Source: a virus. From it: a DNA stretch of 64,000 nucleotides. Below, piece after piece: positions 3,507-11,372 of the stretch. Each line of letters starts with the position of its first letter. Position 1 is the stretch's first letter. The notes under the pieces were generated by a model. It was given only the letters and a program-made list of their open reading frames with translations. It had not been told where the DNA came from and ran no database searches. The stretch covers positions 10,486 through 74,485 of IMG/VR virus record IMGVR_UViG_3300035703_000061; one strand, given 5' to 3'. The translations under genes were made by a program, and so were the position numbers.

Positions 3507-3740
3507 ATGAAGACAGAACTCGCAGAGTATTTGGCGAACACTGACAGTCGCACCTTTAATCGTCAAAAGGCGCGGCAAATACCAATGCTTACTGATGAAG
3601 AATTCTGCGCAGCATTCTTGCTGTTTAGCGAGGGTATGCGAGTGAACCCTGAATTGTCGCGCAGTCCCGCAGTTATGGGCGCGCTGAATGCTTTTAGAAA
3701 TGCAAAGCAAATCAGCGTTAAGTTGCCCGGCGAACAGTAA
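3507..3740 (+). CDS. hypothetical protein
   Basis: ATG at 3507 (MKTELAEYLAN...) within ORF 3294..3740. Confidence 0.55.
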   Translation: MKTELAEYLANTDSRTFNRQKARQIPMLTDEEFCAAFLLFSEGMRVNPELSRSPAVMGALNAFRNAKQISVKLPGEQ

Positions 3741-3784
3741 GCAATCCGTCAAGCATTCTGCAAACATTCTCACAAACAAACATC

Positions 3785-6207: not shown

Positions 6208-6903
6208 ATGGTTCAGCCCAAGCAGAAAAAGCGCAAAACAGAAGGCTGGGTGTATTTCGTGCAATGGGCGAGCATGCCCTATCACGTCAAAATCGGCTTC
6301 TCCACATCGCTAGGAGACCGCTTTGCATCGTTCCTCACGTCATCGCCGGACACGCTGATCGTCGTCAAGGCCTTTGAGGCGAATCGGGACGATGAGCAGG
6401 AGCTGCACGAGCGTTTTGAAAATTCGCGCCATGCAGGCGAATGGTTCCATCTTTCCATTGCAATCAAGAAATATCTTGAAAGCGAAGCGCCTTGTCAGAC
6501 GCTGGAGGCGAAGATTAAATTTGGCAACAGGAATGAAAGTCGCATTCAATGGACGCCAATGCGACCAGGGCTGGCTCAGTCTCTTGAAGCGCTGCATCAG
6601 GAGAAGCGCTTGCCTCGTTATGTGAAGAATGCTCGCACGTTTGTGCTATGGGCCATTGGGGACATTGAAGCTTGTGATTATTTCCCCACGTCTAATGCCA
6701 TCATTCATCACGAAGCAAATCGTGATGCTTATCAGGCGAAAACAATTTATAACCAACTTATTGCATTGGAAGAGGAGGAGATGATTGTGAAAAAGTCTGG
6801 TAAAACTTTTGCCTTGCTTCCGAAGGGAGAAAGTGAGCTTATTAAGACAGAAAAGGAAAATGCGCAGAAACGTAAGAGCGCAAGAAGCTTAAGGCTTGAT
6901 TAA
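6208..6903 (+). CDS. T5orf172/GIY-YIG-like nuclease domain protein with probable C-terminal winged helix
   Basis: WVYFVQ..VKIGFS..R..SP..EQELHERF..R..GEWF; C-terminal TIYNQLIALEEEEMIVKK..FALLPKG. Confidence 0.75.
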   Translation: MVQPKQKKRKTEGWVYFVQWASMPYHVKIGFSTSLGDRFASFLTSSPDTLIVVKAFEANRDDEQELHERFENSRHAGEWFHLSIAIKKYLESEAPCQTLEAKIKFGNRNESRIQWTPMRPGLAQSLEALHQEKRLPRYVKNARTFVLWAIGDIEACDYFPTSNAIIHHEANRDAYQAKTIYNQLIALEEEEMIVKKSGKTFALLPKGESELIKTEKENAQKRKSARSLRLD

Positions 6904-7256: not shown

Positions 7257-8687
7257 ATGAAGCTGAAGGAAAAGGCAAAATGTGAGCCGATTGCTCGTAC
7301 TGGCAGGGTGCAAGATTGGCTTGATGATCCTGAAAGCAGGCTTGCCGTTAGTTGCACTACGTTCGTAGTGGACGATTCAATGGAAGGGCCAGATGGTATT
7401 GAAGCATCGTGGCGCTTTGTGAGCCATGCTCTTCGTAATGCCGCTGGTGCCGCAGTGCATCTTTCTGAACTGCGTCCCAAAGGCGAAGATAATGGCAAGG
7501 GGCTAATTGCTAGCGGGCCAGTAAGCTTTGCAAAGATTTATAGCAAGCTCAACGAGATTCTTCGTCGCGGGGGGAAATTTCGCAATGGCGCCGTCACGCT
7601 ACATCTTGACTACACGCATCCCGATGCCATTGAATTTGTTTCCACTTCTCGTAGTGAACTTCCTTGGGCAAAGCGTTGCTTGAACGTTGACAATAATTTT
7701 CTTTCCGCGTCGTCTCCCGAGCTGATTAATGCCTGTCTTCGTGCCATCTCTTCTGGCGATCTCTGGCTCAACAAAATCCGCTACGACAACAATGGAAAGC
7801 GGCTACGTCCAAATGTTTGCCTTGAAGTATATCTTCCGCATCGTGGCACTTGCCTTCTTCAGCACGTTAATTTGGGCGCATGCACGCTGGACAATATTCA
7901 AGGAGCTTTCGCTGAAGGCATGAGGCAGCTTTGTGAGCTGCATCCTGGCACTGGCGTGGGCGACACTGGTGAATATCTTTCCCCTTCCATTGATAAGCAA
8001 GTGGGCCTCGGCATTCTTGGTCTCGCCAATTTTCTTTCCATCCATGGAATTAGCTACAAAGAATTTGGCGAGGCTCTTGATGCTTTCCTAATGGACGATC
8101 CCCACCCTTGGGCTCATCATTGGAAAGACACCGTGGCCGGAAAAGCCGTCCACGCTTTGTACCAAGGCATTGACGCTGCTGCTGATATTGCTCGTGAGCA
8201 TGGCATGGAGCGGGCATTCTGCATTGCTCCCACTGCTTCGTGTTCCTATCGCTACCTCGACACTCGTGGCTTTACGACAGCCCCTGAAATTGCTCCTCCC
8301 ATTGATCGGCTTGTGGATCGCGACAGCGAAACCATGGGCGTTGAACGCTTTGAATATGGGCCAGTAGAAATTGCAGAGGAAGTGGGCTGGGAAGCTTTCC
8401 GTAAAGTTGCTGATGGCATTTGCGAACTTTTCCACCGCACTGGTTTGTTCCATGGTTATTCAATGAATTGGTGGTCTGATCTTGTTTCTTGTGATGAAAG
8501 TTTCATTCAAGAGTGGCTTGATAGTCCGCAAACTTCTGTTTATTACGCCCTTCAAGTGCAAGCTGGCACTCAAGCTAAAGACGATGTTGGAGTAGAATTA
8601 GGGGAGAGCCTGAGCAGCTTCTTTTCCCTTGAGGAGAGCGAAAGTTGTTCATTGGATGGGGGCTTCTGCAGCTCTTGCGCTGAGTAG
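7257..8687 (+). CDS. nrdA: ribonucleotide reductase alpha subunit, short cyanophage type
   Basis: IARTGRVQDWLDDPESRLAVSCT, NVCLEV, CLLQHVNLG, VGLGILGLA, IAPTASCS, VYY, C-terminal CSSCAE. Confidence 0.92.
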   Translation: MKLKEKAKCEPIARTGRVQDWLDDPESRLAVSCTTFVVDDSMEGPDGIEASWRFVSHALRNAAGAAVHLSELRPKGEDNGKGLIASGPVSFAKIYSKLNEILRRGGKFRNGAVTLHLDYTHPDAIEFVSTSRSELPWAKRCLNVDNNFLSASSPELINACLRAISSGDLWLNKIRYDNNGKRLRPNVCLEVYLPHRGTCLLQHVNLGACTLDNIQGAFAEGMRQLCELHPGTGVGDTGEYLSPSIDKQVGLGILGLANFLSIHGISYKEFGEALDAFLMDDPHPWAHHWKDTVAGKAVHALYQGIDAAADIAREHGMERAFCIAPTASCSYRYLDTRGFTTAPEIAPPIDRLVDRDSETMGVERFEYGPVEIAEEVGWEAFRKVADGICELFHRTGLFHGYSMNWWSDLVSCDESFIQEWLDSPQTSVYYALQVQAGTQAKDDVGVELGESLSSFFSLEESESCSLDGGFCSSCAE

Positions 8688-8755: not shown

Positions 8756-9487
8756 ATGGCAGTTCAAGATTATTTTTCGGCAGTTGCTCGCAAGCGCCCT
8801 TGGCAGGCAGTGCCTGTTACTAAAGGGGAATTTGTCAATGGCTCGGAAGAGACCATTTTTCGTGCATTGGCCATTCGTCATCTTGAGCTTCCCGTGAAGG
8901 ACATGCTGATGGAAGGACTGGAGCGCGAGCTTCCCAATACGCCTGGTCTTATTGAAAGCATTCACAGCAACATTCTGGACGAAGAGCGTCATGATCTTGC
9001 CTTGAATTATGTCACGGCTGCTCATGGCGTTGATGAACAGGCGGAAAAGGAGGCTATGAAGATTCGCCAAGCATGGATTGATCACCCCGCCCATCCCATT
9101 GCAAAAGTGGCAGTGCTTGAGCGGAGCCTGTTCTTTACTATTCTGCCTTTCTTTCGTTTCAATGGAGATAAGGGGCTGCGTACTGTGGCAACGGACATTT
9201 CTCGCGACGAGATCTGTCACGCTTATTGCCACACCAAAATCTGCGAAGAAGCTGGAGAGAAATATGGCGAAAGCTTGAATAAACTGCGCAAGATGACGGC
9301 GCTATGGATTTATGACAAGCTTGGCGCGTCGTCTAATAAATATCTTGATAAAGATTTTTGGCTGCGCCAGAGTGATGCGTTGTTTATTAATGGCAGGGCT
9401 CCTGAGCTGAATGAAACCAGAGCCAGCACGGTTCCGGCGTTCTTTGAAACGAATGCGCTAAATTTGCCTGCCTATGGCAAAGCTTGA
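8756..9487 (+). CDS. nrdB: ribonucleotide reductase beta subunit (ferritin-like)
   Basis: Di-metal motifs HLELP, DEERH, LERSLFF, DEICH; directly downstream of the alpha subunit. Confidence 0.82.
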   Translation: MAVQDYFSAVARKRPWQAVPVTKGEFVNGSEETIFRALAIRHLELPVKDMLMEGLERELPNTPGLIESIHSNILDEERHDLALNYVTAAHGVDEQAEKEAMKIRQAWIDHPAHPIAKVAVLERSLFFTILPFFRFNGDKGLRTVATDISRDEICHAYCHTKICEEAGEKYGESLNKLRKMTALWIYDKLGASSNKYLDKDFWLRQSDALFINGRAPELNETRASTVPAFFETNALNLPAYGKA

Positions 9488-9499
9488 TGCTATATTGAC

Positions 9500-9962
9500 A
9501 AAGTTCCCGCTCTGCGTTAGCATCGGGCAGACAGAGCTTAAGCCTCTGAAGCGATTAGCGCTTGTTAATCGCTTCACGCTTAAGCCATTACAGCGGTCGG
9601 CGATCACCGTCATGCGTTCTTCGGATCGCCCGAATGAAAACGAGGCAAATCCCAAAGGTTCGTCCTGTCGGGGGTCGGATGGTAACCGACAAAACCTCCC
9701 TCCATTGCTTTGTCAGTGGAGAGCAGCGCACGGACTGGAAATTTCTGGTCGCCGCGTTTGCGTGATTCGCCCCCAAGCTTAGCTCTCAGACGGAAACCAA
9801 TTTGTTGGCGCCAGCAAAATGGTTTCTAGAGATGATGCTCAAACAGGGGGCTCTTGGCCCTGAAGTGTTGGCACACGTTAGGCACCAGCAGCTTCGCTGC
9901 GTACGAATGGCCGAATGGCCATTCTGAGCCTAGAATTCCGTGGTTCGATTCCCGGCAGCGTC
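9500..9962 (+). ncRNA. candidate large structured ncRNA ending in a tRNA-like domain
   Basis: Extended -10 TGCTATATT at 9488; eight or more strong hairpins; closing helix AGCATC/GATGCT; loop-loop complementarity; T-loop GGTTCGATTCC at 9942. Confidence 0.65.
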
Positions 9963-9968
9963 TTTTCC

Positions 9969-10169
9969 ATGGCTCGTTATCGCATCGTCAAACGCGGAGG
10001 TTTAGCGAATCCAACCAAGGCTTATTACGACGTAGAAGAGCAAGTCTTATGCTTTTGGTTTTGGCAAAATACGTTTACGAAGCTTGAAAGTGCAGAAGCA
10101 TTAGTAAAAGATCTGCAAGCGCAAGATAGGCGAATTAAAAGGCAAGTGGTTGGGGAGTATGAAGAATGA
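9969..10169 (+). CDS. hypothetical protein
   Basis: ATG at 9969 (MARYRIVKR...), ATGA-coupled to the next gene. Confidence 0.65.
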   Translation: MARYRIVKRGGLANPTKAYYDVEEQVLCFWFWQNTFTKLESAEALVKDLQAQDRRIKRQVVGEYEE

Positions 10170-10726
10170 GCGCCTTCGTCATCGCAGATACGCATTTTGG
10201 CCACGCCAAAAGCATTTCTTTCGTGCGTCCTGATGGCGAATTGCTGCGTCCATTTTCTTCCGTAGAAGAAATGGACGAAACAATGGTGAAACGATGGAAT
10301 AAGAAAGTAGGCAAGCGTGATACGATTTACCATCTTGGTGACGTAGTAATTCCTCGTGCAAGTTTGAAAATCCTTGATCGTCTTAATGGACGCAAGATTC
10401 TCATTCGCGGGAATCATGATATTGGACCATTGAAAGATTTTTCTAAATACTTTGAAGACGTGAGGGGAGCGTTCTTTCATAATGGCGATTCAACCATGAA
10501 AGGAGGATTAATTTTCACCCATATTCCAGTGCATCCAGCATGTCTGTCAGGGCATTATCTGGGCAATGTTCATGGTCATTTGCATTGCCACCAAGTTTTT
10601 AATGAAAAAGGAGAAATTGATAAGCGTTATTACAATGCTTGTGTGGAAAGGAATGATTTCGCTCCAGTAGCATTTGAAGAGATAAAAGCCTTCTTTAAGG
10701 GCCATGACGGAACGCAGGACTTTTAA
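10166..10726 (+). CDS. calcineurin-like metallophosphoesterase
   Basis: ADTHFGH, HLGDV, RGNHD, FTHIP, HGHLH motifs. Confidence 0.92.
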   Translation: MSAFVIADTHFGHAKSISFVRPDGELLRPFSSVEEMDETMVKRWNKKVGKRDTIYHLGDVVIPRASLKILDRLNGRKILIRGNHDIGPLKDFSKYFEDVRGAFFHNGDSTMKGGLIFTHIPVHPACLSGHYLGNVHGHLHCHQVFNEKGEIDKRYYNACVERNDFAPVAFEEIKAFFKGHDGTQDF

Positions 10727-10928: not shown

Positions 10929-11166
10929 GAAGGCGAGTAAGCATGATCACGAAGCAGACAAAGTGGCGCTCATCCGCACGTTCATCTTTGCATCGTATTT
11001 AATCACCAACATTGCCATCGTTGCTAACGCTTGGCGCCATTGGGAGAAGCAGCCATCTGCTTGCGAACAAGCATTAAAAAGGGGGAGCTTAAGCCCCCAA
11101 TGCCCTCGGTGGGATTTGAACCCACATGAAGAAAATTCTTCTACGGATTTTAAGTCCGTTGCATAA
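10882..11166 (+). CDS. small membrane protein (WRIWAKALGEKA type)
   Basis: One hydrophobic helix; 3' end runs antisense into the tRNA. Confidence 0.6.
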   Translation: MSRKNAWRIWAKALGEKASKHDHEADKVALIRTFIFASYLITNIAIVANAWRHWEKQPSACEQALKRGSLSPQCPRWDLNPHEENSSTDFKSVA

Positions 11167-11186
11167 ACCAGTTCTGCTACGAGGGC
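11101..11186 (-). tRNA. trnL: tRNA-Leu(UAA), no encoded CCA
   Basis: GCCCTCG/CGAGGGC acceptor stem, ACGGA-CTTAAAA-TCCGT anticodon arm, long variable arm, GTGGG-TTCAAAT-CCCAC T-arm, discriminator A. Confidence 0.95.
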
Positions 11187-11348
11187 TCATGAGCAAAAGG
11201 GGCGTCGAGCGGGGCTTCAATCCGCCTTGTACGACATTTCAAAACGGGTTGGCCCGTTTCCCCCTTTCCCCTGGTACAGAACAATGGCGCCTGAAACCAT
11301 TGTTCCTTATTGAACTAACGCTGGCCAGCGTGCTTCGCGAAAGCTTCA
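11187..11348 (-). ncRNA. candidate structured ncRNA/leader immediately upstream of tRNA-Leu
   Basis: -10-like GCTATGCT at 11351-11358; several stems; TTCAAT/ATTGAA pseudoknot complementarity. Confidence 0.6.
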
Positions 11349-11372
11349 AAAGCATAGCATGGCTTTCGCTAC

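Follow-up and report, generated by a model that had tools for sequence, protein, structure and literature searches.

A putative antitoxin decoy cassette of exchangeable RNA modules and a tRNA look-alike in a virus related to Synechococcus phage S-CBS4

Results

A chain of small RNA modules in a 481-nt gap

A gap of 481 nucleotides (nt) between two protein genes was analyzed in a 64,000-nt stretch of the IMG/VR virus record IMGVR_UViG_3300035703_000061 (record positions 10,486 to 74,485; this stretch is called the window, and coordinates are counted from its first letter). The gap is probably an orphan antitoxin decoy cassette against the host nuclease AbiF, a widespread abortive-infection RNase that is a proposed ancestor of Cas13, and the decoy RNAs would probably be released by tRNA processing. 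We infer this function from the fact that the modules have homologues, covary and are linked to host Abi_2 (AbiF) genes, that the phage carries no toxin gene, and that a tight fusion to tRNAs is specific to phages. As judged from sequence comparison, the gap is a chain of small exchangeable RNA modules behind putative promoters and not one conserved large RNA, because the blocks are kept, swapped or missing in relatives and no long-range pairing was supported.

The source is a 74.5-kb freshwater cyanophage with a CheckV completeness of 100%, and its closest isolate is Synechococcus phage S-CBS4 (TerL 76% identical; host Synechococcus CB0101). The gap lies between the TGA stop codon of the upstream gene at 9485–9487 and the next conserved ATG at 9969, in agreement with the about 480 nt given by a first-pass annotation of the same DNA. 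Related sequences were collected as 53 viral loci retrieved with the upstream protein (81–95% amino-acid identity); single loci are denoted by L numbers. The elements on which the decoy reading depends are as follows.

9529–9590, + strand: module A, made of GACAGAGC, the stem strand TTAAGC, CTCTG, a variable hairpin (9549–9573), TCAC, the stem strand GCTTAA, GC and CAT.
9769–9851, + strand: variant of the abiF motif (RF03085), with stem P1 (9769–9774/9846–9851), stem P2 (9776–9778/9837–9839) and a 3′ bulge (9840–9845).
Within 9769–9851, + strand: inserted stems of the abiF variant, P2b (9784–9787/9829–9832), P3 (9793–9798/9821–9826) and P4 (9801–9807/9812–9818).
9856–9963, + strand: tRNA look-alike of a short 68–69-nt family, with a 7-base-pair (bp) acceptor stem, A8, D stem GUGU/ACAC, D loop UGGC, T loop UUCGAUU and no encoded CCA.
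9885–9926, + strand: insertion of 41–44 nt in the anticodon loop of the look-alike, with the hairpins GCAGC-UUC-GCUGC and GAAUGGCC-GAAU-GGCCAUUC, found in this genome only.

Folding of the + strand of the gap gave a minimum free energy of −190.7 kcal/mol vs. −159.3 ± 5.8 for shuffled sequences (z −5.46), confirming the strong structure claimed by the first-pass annotation, and all helices listed there were found in place; the z value for the − strand was −3.61. Rfam at gathering thresholds and ARAGORN found nothing within the gap, and no match was obtained when the region was compared by blastn with 50,697 phage records. Two weak leads came from a permissive Rfam scan: abiF at 9769–9852 (22.8 bits) and mascRNA at 9856–9962 (17.8 bits); the latter was the first clue to the tRNA look-alike. 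The earlier statement that no recognizable signature is present thus had to be given up, as the gap contains an abiF-motif variant and a tRNA-like element.

Module A matches the leaders of picocyanobacterial Abi_2 genes

Twenty-six distinct phage copies of module A were aligned, and the outer 8-bp stem was 100% paired in them. Six of these pairs were preselected by the regular expression (regex); the two that were not preselected (alignment columns 8–83 and 9–82) also pair and covary. The strands CYCUG and YCAC are conserved, and the inner hairpin varies freely. The first-pass hairpin at 9547–9576 was upheld in part: the stem flanking it covaries, but the hairpin itself is replaced by others in relatives.

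No Rfam family matched module A (9529–9590) at E ≤ 10. A covariance model built from the phage copies alone (model R2) matched six of six Synechococcus/Cyanobium Abi_2 loci, each time just before the gene (43–51 bits, E 1e-7 to 1e-9). The first host match was found upstream of an Abi_2 gene of Synechococcus sp. UW140, a photosynthetic organism with a 2.7-Mb genome, and the gene behind this type of leader was identified as Abi_2 with E 4e-48. The pair of gene and leader also occurs in Cyanobium sp. NIES-981, Cyanobium sp. Cruz CV13-4-11 and related freshwater metagenome-assembled genomes. Model R2 found no match at Bacteroidales-type abiF loci, nor in the phages S-CBS4 and S-CREM1, and it did match phage S-SZBM1 immediately upstream of its abiF hairpin.

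Among 401 sampled Cyanobacteriota genomes, 32 carry Abi_2 above the family cut-off. Hairpins of the abiF plan, some with long variable terminal loops, were seen in the five correctly parsed upstream regions of cyanobacterial Abi_2 genes; when Rfam was run on ten cyanobacterial Abi_2 loci, one reached the abiF threshold and the other leaders were divergent. Module A copies the leader RNA of freshwater picocyanobacterial Abi_2 (AbiF) genes, and represents a second type of AbiF leader that RF03085 does not detect.

An expanded abiF motif lies in front of the tRNA look-alike

The module at 9769–9851 follows the abiF plan, with a P1 of about 6 bp, an unpaired A, a 3-bp P2 (AGC/GCU) and the 3′ bulge CAAACA (CAAAnn). 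The conserved 11-nt terminal loop CUCUYAACRAU is absent, and a 58-nt branched insert (UUAG, stems, AUGAU) takes its place; because of this insert, the score stays below the gathering score. At the same position, relatives L032 and L008 carry a canonical RF03085 motif (48.2 bits), separated by 5 nt from the tRNA look-alike behind it. The window and seven relatives share P1, P2 and the CAAAC bulge with this motif, but have a branched stem inserted in the terminal loop. In an alignment of seven sequences (A3), 97.8% of the cells were paired, and both-sided changes were seen in seven pairs, which belong to P1, P2, P2b and the inserted hairpin; in L028, both P1 and P2 covary (C-G to U-A and A-U to U-A). 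The covariation also bears out the hairpin at 9793–9826 of the first-pass annotation, which now falls inside this abiF-like module.

The canonical phage hairpins connect the motif with bacterial toxin genes, as their 22-nt loop sequence is identical in bacterial abiF leaders. In bacteria, this loop lies about 28 nt before an open reading frame (ORF) of about 300 amino acids, and eight of eight ORFs tested were Abi_2 (E 1e-49 to 1e-58). None of the 123 bacterial copies had a tRNA within −300 to +400 nt. In viral contigs, the loop was found in 70 loci with 60 distinct contexts, and a tRNA or tRNA look-alike starts 4–5 nt after the hairpin in 46 of the 60, some being fully canonical tRNAs; 25 contexts had an ARAGORN tRNA 12–16 nt past the loop pattern, and 21 more had a T loop at the matching distance.

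Isolated phages show the same arrangement. In S-CREM1, which infects Synechococcus CB0101, a distance of 4 nt separates the abiF hairpin from the tRNA-Gly behind it; in S-SZBM1 (L383, 1145–1321), a phage of the same host, module A, the abiF hairpin and tRNA-Ala follow in this order, with both modules unannotated. In both phages the hairpin sits inside a tRNA array. The hairpin was also found in S-SRM01 and in 34 mycobacteriophage records (Baka, Optimus, Wanda and others). In mycobacteriophages such as Baka (L384, 1501–1538), Optimus and Wanda, an abiF-like hairpin precedes tRNA-Gly by about 280 nt and partly overlaps a gene annotated as "hypothetical protein". In S-CBS4 (L369), the cassette is absent after the nrdB-like gene, and an abiF-like hairpin of 34.3 bits, just under the threshold, is located at 3684–3721, after a phosphoesterase gene and overlapping the annotated start of gp005.

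The abiF-motif RNA is a type III antitoxin, which neutralizes the HEPN RNase AbiF/Abi_2 by direct binding (PMC12373285). The work of Zilberzwige-Tal (2025), as summarized in PMC12737573 and PMC13064643, likewise has the abiF-motif RNA bind and block AbiF, and a hairpin of phage sk1 was reported to inhibit AbiF (PMC13064643), with which the decoy reading agrees. Abi_2 (PF07751) had no match in the 74.5-kb phage genome, and tblastn found none in 0.94 Mb of related viral loci. As the phage lacks the AbiF nuclease gene, it therefore probably makes these RNAs to disarm the host defense.

A tRNA look-alike with an insertion in its anticodon loop

A covariance model of the look-alike family (model R1) scored 73.3 bits on window positions 9856–9963 (E 1e-19), with 44 nt in the anticodon loop vs. 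5 in the model; ARAGORN and the Rfam tRNA family (RF00005) missed this copy. In relatives, the 68–69-nt element is called by ARAGORN as Ile-GAU, Met-CAU or Val-AAC, and one reached 39.9 bits with the Rfam tRNA model. The cloverleaf covaries in relatives (alignment A2), with 94% of the cells paired and nine pairs changed on both sides. Folded alone, the look-alike of the window gave a z of −1.69 and no cloverleaf was predicted. Members of the family have A8, a D stem of 4 bp with a D loop of 4 nt, and a C32-G38 that can pair; A33 is found in most of them. They also show mismatches in the acceptor stem, lack CCA and differ in anticodon between close relatives. A conventional tRNA would instead carry U8, a normal D loop and U33 in a 7-nt anticodon loop, the core of which is replaced by 44 nt in the window copy.

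Apart from its insertion, the look-alike of the window is intact and shows one G-U change in the acceptor stem. At the insertion site relatives have 3 nt (AAT, GAT or CAT). The insertion was considered as a mobile element, and no second copy was found in the genome or in IMG/VR. It was also considered as an intron: RNA-library contigs of near relatives join 9884 to 9927 with AAT, as in the alleles of L003 and L004, which is not splicing. The insertion is an allele. An RNA that tolerates this insertion is unlikely to decode codons. A search of bacterial genomes with a 15-mer of the D arm gave at least 120 matches, probably by chance, since R1 reached at most 31 bits in the 100 loci searched.

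The cassette is a mosaic in related phages

In relatives, the gap ranges from about 55 nt to about 870 nt, and modules are swapped, deleted, added or reordered; in some, only about 55 nt separate the gene from the tRNA-like element. By blastn and alignment, the block 9488–9591 is common to about six loci, 9592–9693 is complete only in L003 among the loci fetched, 9694–9884 is shared by varying loci, and 9885–9926 is in no relative. The commonest layout consists of module A, an abiF motif (canonical or expanded) and the tRNA look-alike; it was found in 13 of 48 loci by regex, and in four more whose look-alike the regex missed.

Promoter-like boxes precede module A

9488–9496, + strand: extended −10-like box TGCTATATT, putative promoter P1, directly after the stop codon.
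9495–9523, + strand: putative sigma-70-like promoter P2, TTGACA-17 nt-TAGCAT, with 10 of 12 consensus matches.

The box of promoter P1 had been reported by the first-pass annotation as an extended −10 and is present; similar boxes (TGCTATAGT, CGCTACAGT, TGCTATACT and the like) directly follow the stop codon in relatives, even in leaders of about 55 nt. The pattern TGCTAYRNT occurs four times in the whole window, and two of these matches precede the two tRNA or tRNA-like units. Transcription from promoter P2 is predicted to start where module A begins, near 9530. The layout of the phage (TTGACA, 17 nt, TAGCAT, 6 nt, GACAGAGC) is parallel to that of the host Abi_2 loci (TTGACA, 17 nt, CATGCT, 6 nt, GATAGAGC). 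Contigs of RNA libraries (four runs, three studies) cover the region; such contigs may include DNA and give no strand or ends. A 337-nt contig of one RNA library starts at about 9531, a weak hint to the P2 start only. No terminator-like site was found in 9488–9968.

A second copy of a TGCTATGCT box (11351–11359, − strand) precedes a structured stretch (window 11187–11359, − strand) upstream of tRNA-Leu(UAA) at 11101–11186. In relatives and S-CBS4, a Glutamine-II riboswitch (RF01704, 36–45 bits) adjoins this tRNA-Leu(UAA); the stretch of the window had no match at Rfam's threshold.

Modules B, C1 and C2

9591–9693, + strand: module B, hairpins including the proposed "kissing" pair.
9697–9722, + strand: module C1, hairpin CTCCATTG/CAGTGGAG with the conserved loop CTYTGTC, 11 distinct copies, nearly invariant.
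9723–9765, + strand: module C2, hairpin around GGACTGGAAATTTCTGGTC, delimited by alignment A1 and a blast survey.

Most changes in C1 affect one side of a pair only (U-A to U-G); L006 has one change on both sides and L004 one mismatch. At the position of C2, other relatives carry a different hairpin block. A palindromic hairpin, CUGGAAAUUUCYGG (window 9727–9741; L003 at about 3755–3775), recurs in loops of different modules of different phages, and could be a mini-insertion able to move from one RNA loop to another.

Module B begins with 24 nt (CAGCGGTCGGCGATCACCGTCATG, 9591–9614) of which 23 are identical to the antisense strand of the host UDP-glucose dehydrogenase gene (ugd) in its 5′ coding region. 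The match lies at about codons 23–30 (motif MAVIADRC) and is present in about 90 of 401 host-family genomes, with E about 3e-4 per genome. The phage has no UDP-glucose dehydrogenase gene, and a + strand transcript of 9591–9614 would be antisense to the host mRNA; the match may be due to chance. In the host-family search with modules B and C, it was the only one that recurred, the rest being about 17–44 nt long with E 9.5e-4 to 0.09 per genome.

Flanking genes

8756–9487, + strand: upstream gene, 243 amino acids, ferritin-like with two ExxH motifs, homologue of S-CBS4 gp002.
9969–10169, + strand: downstream gene, 66 amino acids, N-terminus MARYRIV, with tblastn homologues.

As gp002 is annotated as "ribonucleotide reductase class Ia beta subunit", the nrdB label of the first-pass annotation is reasonable by homology; a Pfam search with the 243-residue protein gave no family above the cut-off. 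Further upstream is a ribonucleotide reductase large-subunit-like ORF (7257–8687, 476 amino acids), whose match to the Pfam barrel domain is confined to the first 100 positions, and a T5orf172/MUG113-type ORF (6208–6903) lies just before it. Homologues of the 66-residue protein (33–44% identity by tblastn) are encoded directly behind the tRNA look-alike in relatives, and Pfam gave no family for it. Its ATG lies 5–6 nt past the look-alike here, and 1–2 nt past it in several relatives. The gene lacks a Shine-Dalgarno sequence at the junction (9963–9971), and its mRNA would have almost no leader after a cut at the 3′ end of the tRNA.

Discussion

How the cassette may act

In the proposed mechanism, one or two promoters would drive a string of independent hairpin modules followed by the tRNA look-alike, which would recruit RNase P (cut at about 9855/9856) and the 3′ tRNA-processing enzyme RNase Z. 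This processing would give the decoy RNA a defined 3′ end, and the downstream mRNA may also have its 5′ end released in this way. The released RNAs would replace the host antitoxin when infection would otherwise unleash AbiF, and abortive infection would thereby be suppressed. Transcription, processing, AbiF binding and the benefit to the phage are thus presumed steps.

Several points weigh against the decoy reading. The abiF module of the window, with 22.8 bits (E 0.2), is below the gathering score of 37 of RF03085; its binding to AbiF is uncertain because stems replace the conserved terminal loop, and a pattern search of bacterial genomes found no Abi_2 locus with the exact window variant (the nine pattern matches all lacked the P1 stem and were attributed to chance). 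Fourteen of the 60 viral hairpin contexts have no tRNA behind them, and modules B, C1 and C2 stay outside the explanation. Few genomes of the host family carry Abi_2 with module A, model R2 matching 3 of 151 sampled, and the host assignment rests on indirect grounds, Synechococcus/Cyanobium being the probable hosts. Transcription itself is presumed, given that the RNA-library contigs may include DNA. As to novelty, the literature searched held nothing on phage abiF copies as decoys, on their fusion to tRNAs or on module A; a 2025 paper in Cell on AbiF may discuss phage copies.

We also propose, tentatively and with clearly less confidence than the AbiF decoy itself, that the cassette could be a multi-target RNA counter-defense array. 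It would comprise two classes of AbiF decoys, one of which (module A) is absent from Rfam, and other modules against other host factors, module B against ugd mRNA being a candidate. The array would be matured via an anticodon-less tRNA look-alike and exchanged module by module among cyanophages, with a simpler form in the cluster J mycobacteriophages.

Other explanations of the gap

The most serious rival holds that the hairpins belong to phage tRNA genes as leaders or processing elements (for example guides for RNase P or RNase E, or transcript stabilizers) and do not act on AbiF, the bacterial leaders sharing the motif only through common descent from mobile elements. In its favor, the linker to the tRNA 5′ end is fixed at 4–5 nt (46 of 60 viral contexts), and in S-CREM1 and S-SZBM1 the hairpin is located inside tRNA arrays. 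We nevertheless regard it as unlikely: an identical 22-nt loop in leaders of gut Bacteroidales and in lake phages is hard to explain without a shared protein partner, the 123 bacterial copies are not next to a tRNA, 14 viral copies have none behind them, and the match of module A is with the leader of a host toxin gene and not with that of a tRNA. A still lower probability is given to a decaying tRNA gene, that is, a pseudogene broken by the insertion, with working tRNA-Ile or tRNA-Met in relatives and neutral mosaic remnants around it. For it speak the tRNAs called by ARAGORN and Rfam (39.9 bits) in relatives, the confinement of the insertion to this genome and the free gain and loss of modules; against it, the window copy is intact outside the insertion (73.3 bits, a single G-U change in the acceptor stem) and the module stems are maintained by compensatory changes; A8, the 4-nt D loop, C32-G38, A33 in many members and the differing anticodons also fit a decoding tRNA poorly. 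A similarly low probability is given to the reading that the cassette acts in cis on the downstream phage genes, as a terminator or attenuator or through an unrecognized phage partner protein. RCd22, which also lowers abiF transcription in cis (PMC12373285), sets a precedent, and the downstream ORF begins just 5–6 nt past the look-alike; against this, the genes behind the cassette differ among relatives, and neither a terminator-like site in 9488–9968 nor an Abi_2-like partner was found.

The two remaining explanations are far less probable than these. The first-pass annotation had proposed one ornate RNA of about 460 nt, conceptually of the GOLLD/ROOL type, closed by long-range pairs and held by kissing loops. 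Strong overall folding (z −5.46) agrees with this proposal, but every block is mosaic in relatives, no GOLLD or ROOL match was obtained at E ≤ 10, and the tertiary contacts did not survive comparison. The kissing loops GCGAT/ATCGC of module B are broken in the sole other copy, L003 having GCAAT opposite an unchanged partner. For the proposed pairing of AGCATC with GATGCT, 16 leaders were compared: all four bases (A, C, G and U) occur at the first position, yet its partner is U in 15; the lone apparent covariation, in L028, fails across the 15 other leaders, and GCU 9837–9839 covaries locally with AGC 9776–9778. For AGAGCT/AGCTCT, the changes in L028 are likewise compensated locally. We therefore consider a single large RNA very improbable. 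Least probable of all is that the overlapping ORFs 9474–9782 or 9562–9765 encode small proteins: frames of 102 and 67 codons are open, but they are lost in L003, L006 and L020 through 20-nt and 1-nt indels and whole-block replacements, and Pfam gave no match. Because the frame of ORF 9474–9782 is broken in this way, the region is taken as non-coding, as the first-pass annotation had assumed.

Meaning and comparison with known systems

The locus and its relatives offer a testable case of an RNA-only anti-defense cassette, and a second, uncatalogued class of AbiF leader RNA common to phage and host. The recurring fusion to a tRNA or look-alike suggests that phages mature small decoy RNAs via tRNA processing. 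If true, the decoy reading would explain the unannotated "abiF sRNA" hits in isolated cyanophages, as well as odd tRNA-like genes that tRNA finders miss or call tRNA-Ile or tRNA-Met.

RNAs with a tRNA-like end are known from other systems: the mascRNA at the 3′ end of MALAT1 is cut by RNase P, and the tRNA cluster of phage T4 encodes small stable RNAs. Like these mascRNA/T4-type elements, the look-alike has a T loop and an acceptor stem, lacks a usable anticodon and lies directly behind another functional RNA. Unlike mascRNA, it belongs to a bacteriophage, has 68–69 nt with a reduced D arm and a 41–44-nt insert in the anticodon loop, and its processing is only predicted. With GOLLD and ROOL the cassette shares that it is phage-borne, near tRNAs and highly structured; it differs in having no Rfam match and no conserved overall architecture, being a chain of exchangeable small modules.

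The closest structural counterpart is the abiF motif RF03085, which corresponds to AbiFr of the Prevotellaceae AbiF (PDB 8VZ6) and to RCd22 of Clostridioides difficile; the plan of P1, A, P2, loop, P2′, CAAAnn bulge and P1′ is the same here. RCd22 also carries two antitoxin-like hairpins on one RNA (PMC12373285), as does the cassette. In RF03085 systems a U-rich tail and the abiF toxin gene follow, whereas here a tRNA look-alike and the 66-residue ORF do, and the terminal loop has 11 nt there vs. a 58-nt branched insert, with a score below the threshold, in the window. The abiF sRNA of S-CREM1, listed as a bare Rfam hit with nothing on anti-defense, the tRNA link or module A (PMC9964418), is the same hairpin as in the canonical relatives, 4 nt before a tRNA.

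In function, the nearest parallel is the pseudo-ToxI of phage phiTE, a phage RNA that mimics the ToxI antitoxin and allows escape from ToxIN abortive infection (PMC3475682). Both are phage copies of a host type III antitoxin RNA that come without the toxin gene, and the role proposed for the cassette is likewise to neutralize an abortive-infection RNase. The cassette described here differs from pseudo-ToxI in that the toxin is the HEPN protein AbiF and not ToxN, that it consists of hairpin modules and not of tandem 36-nt repeats, and that these are fused to a tRNA-like element.

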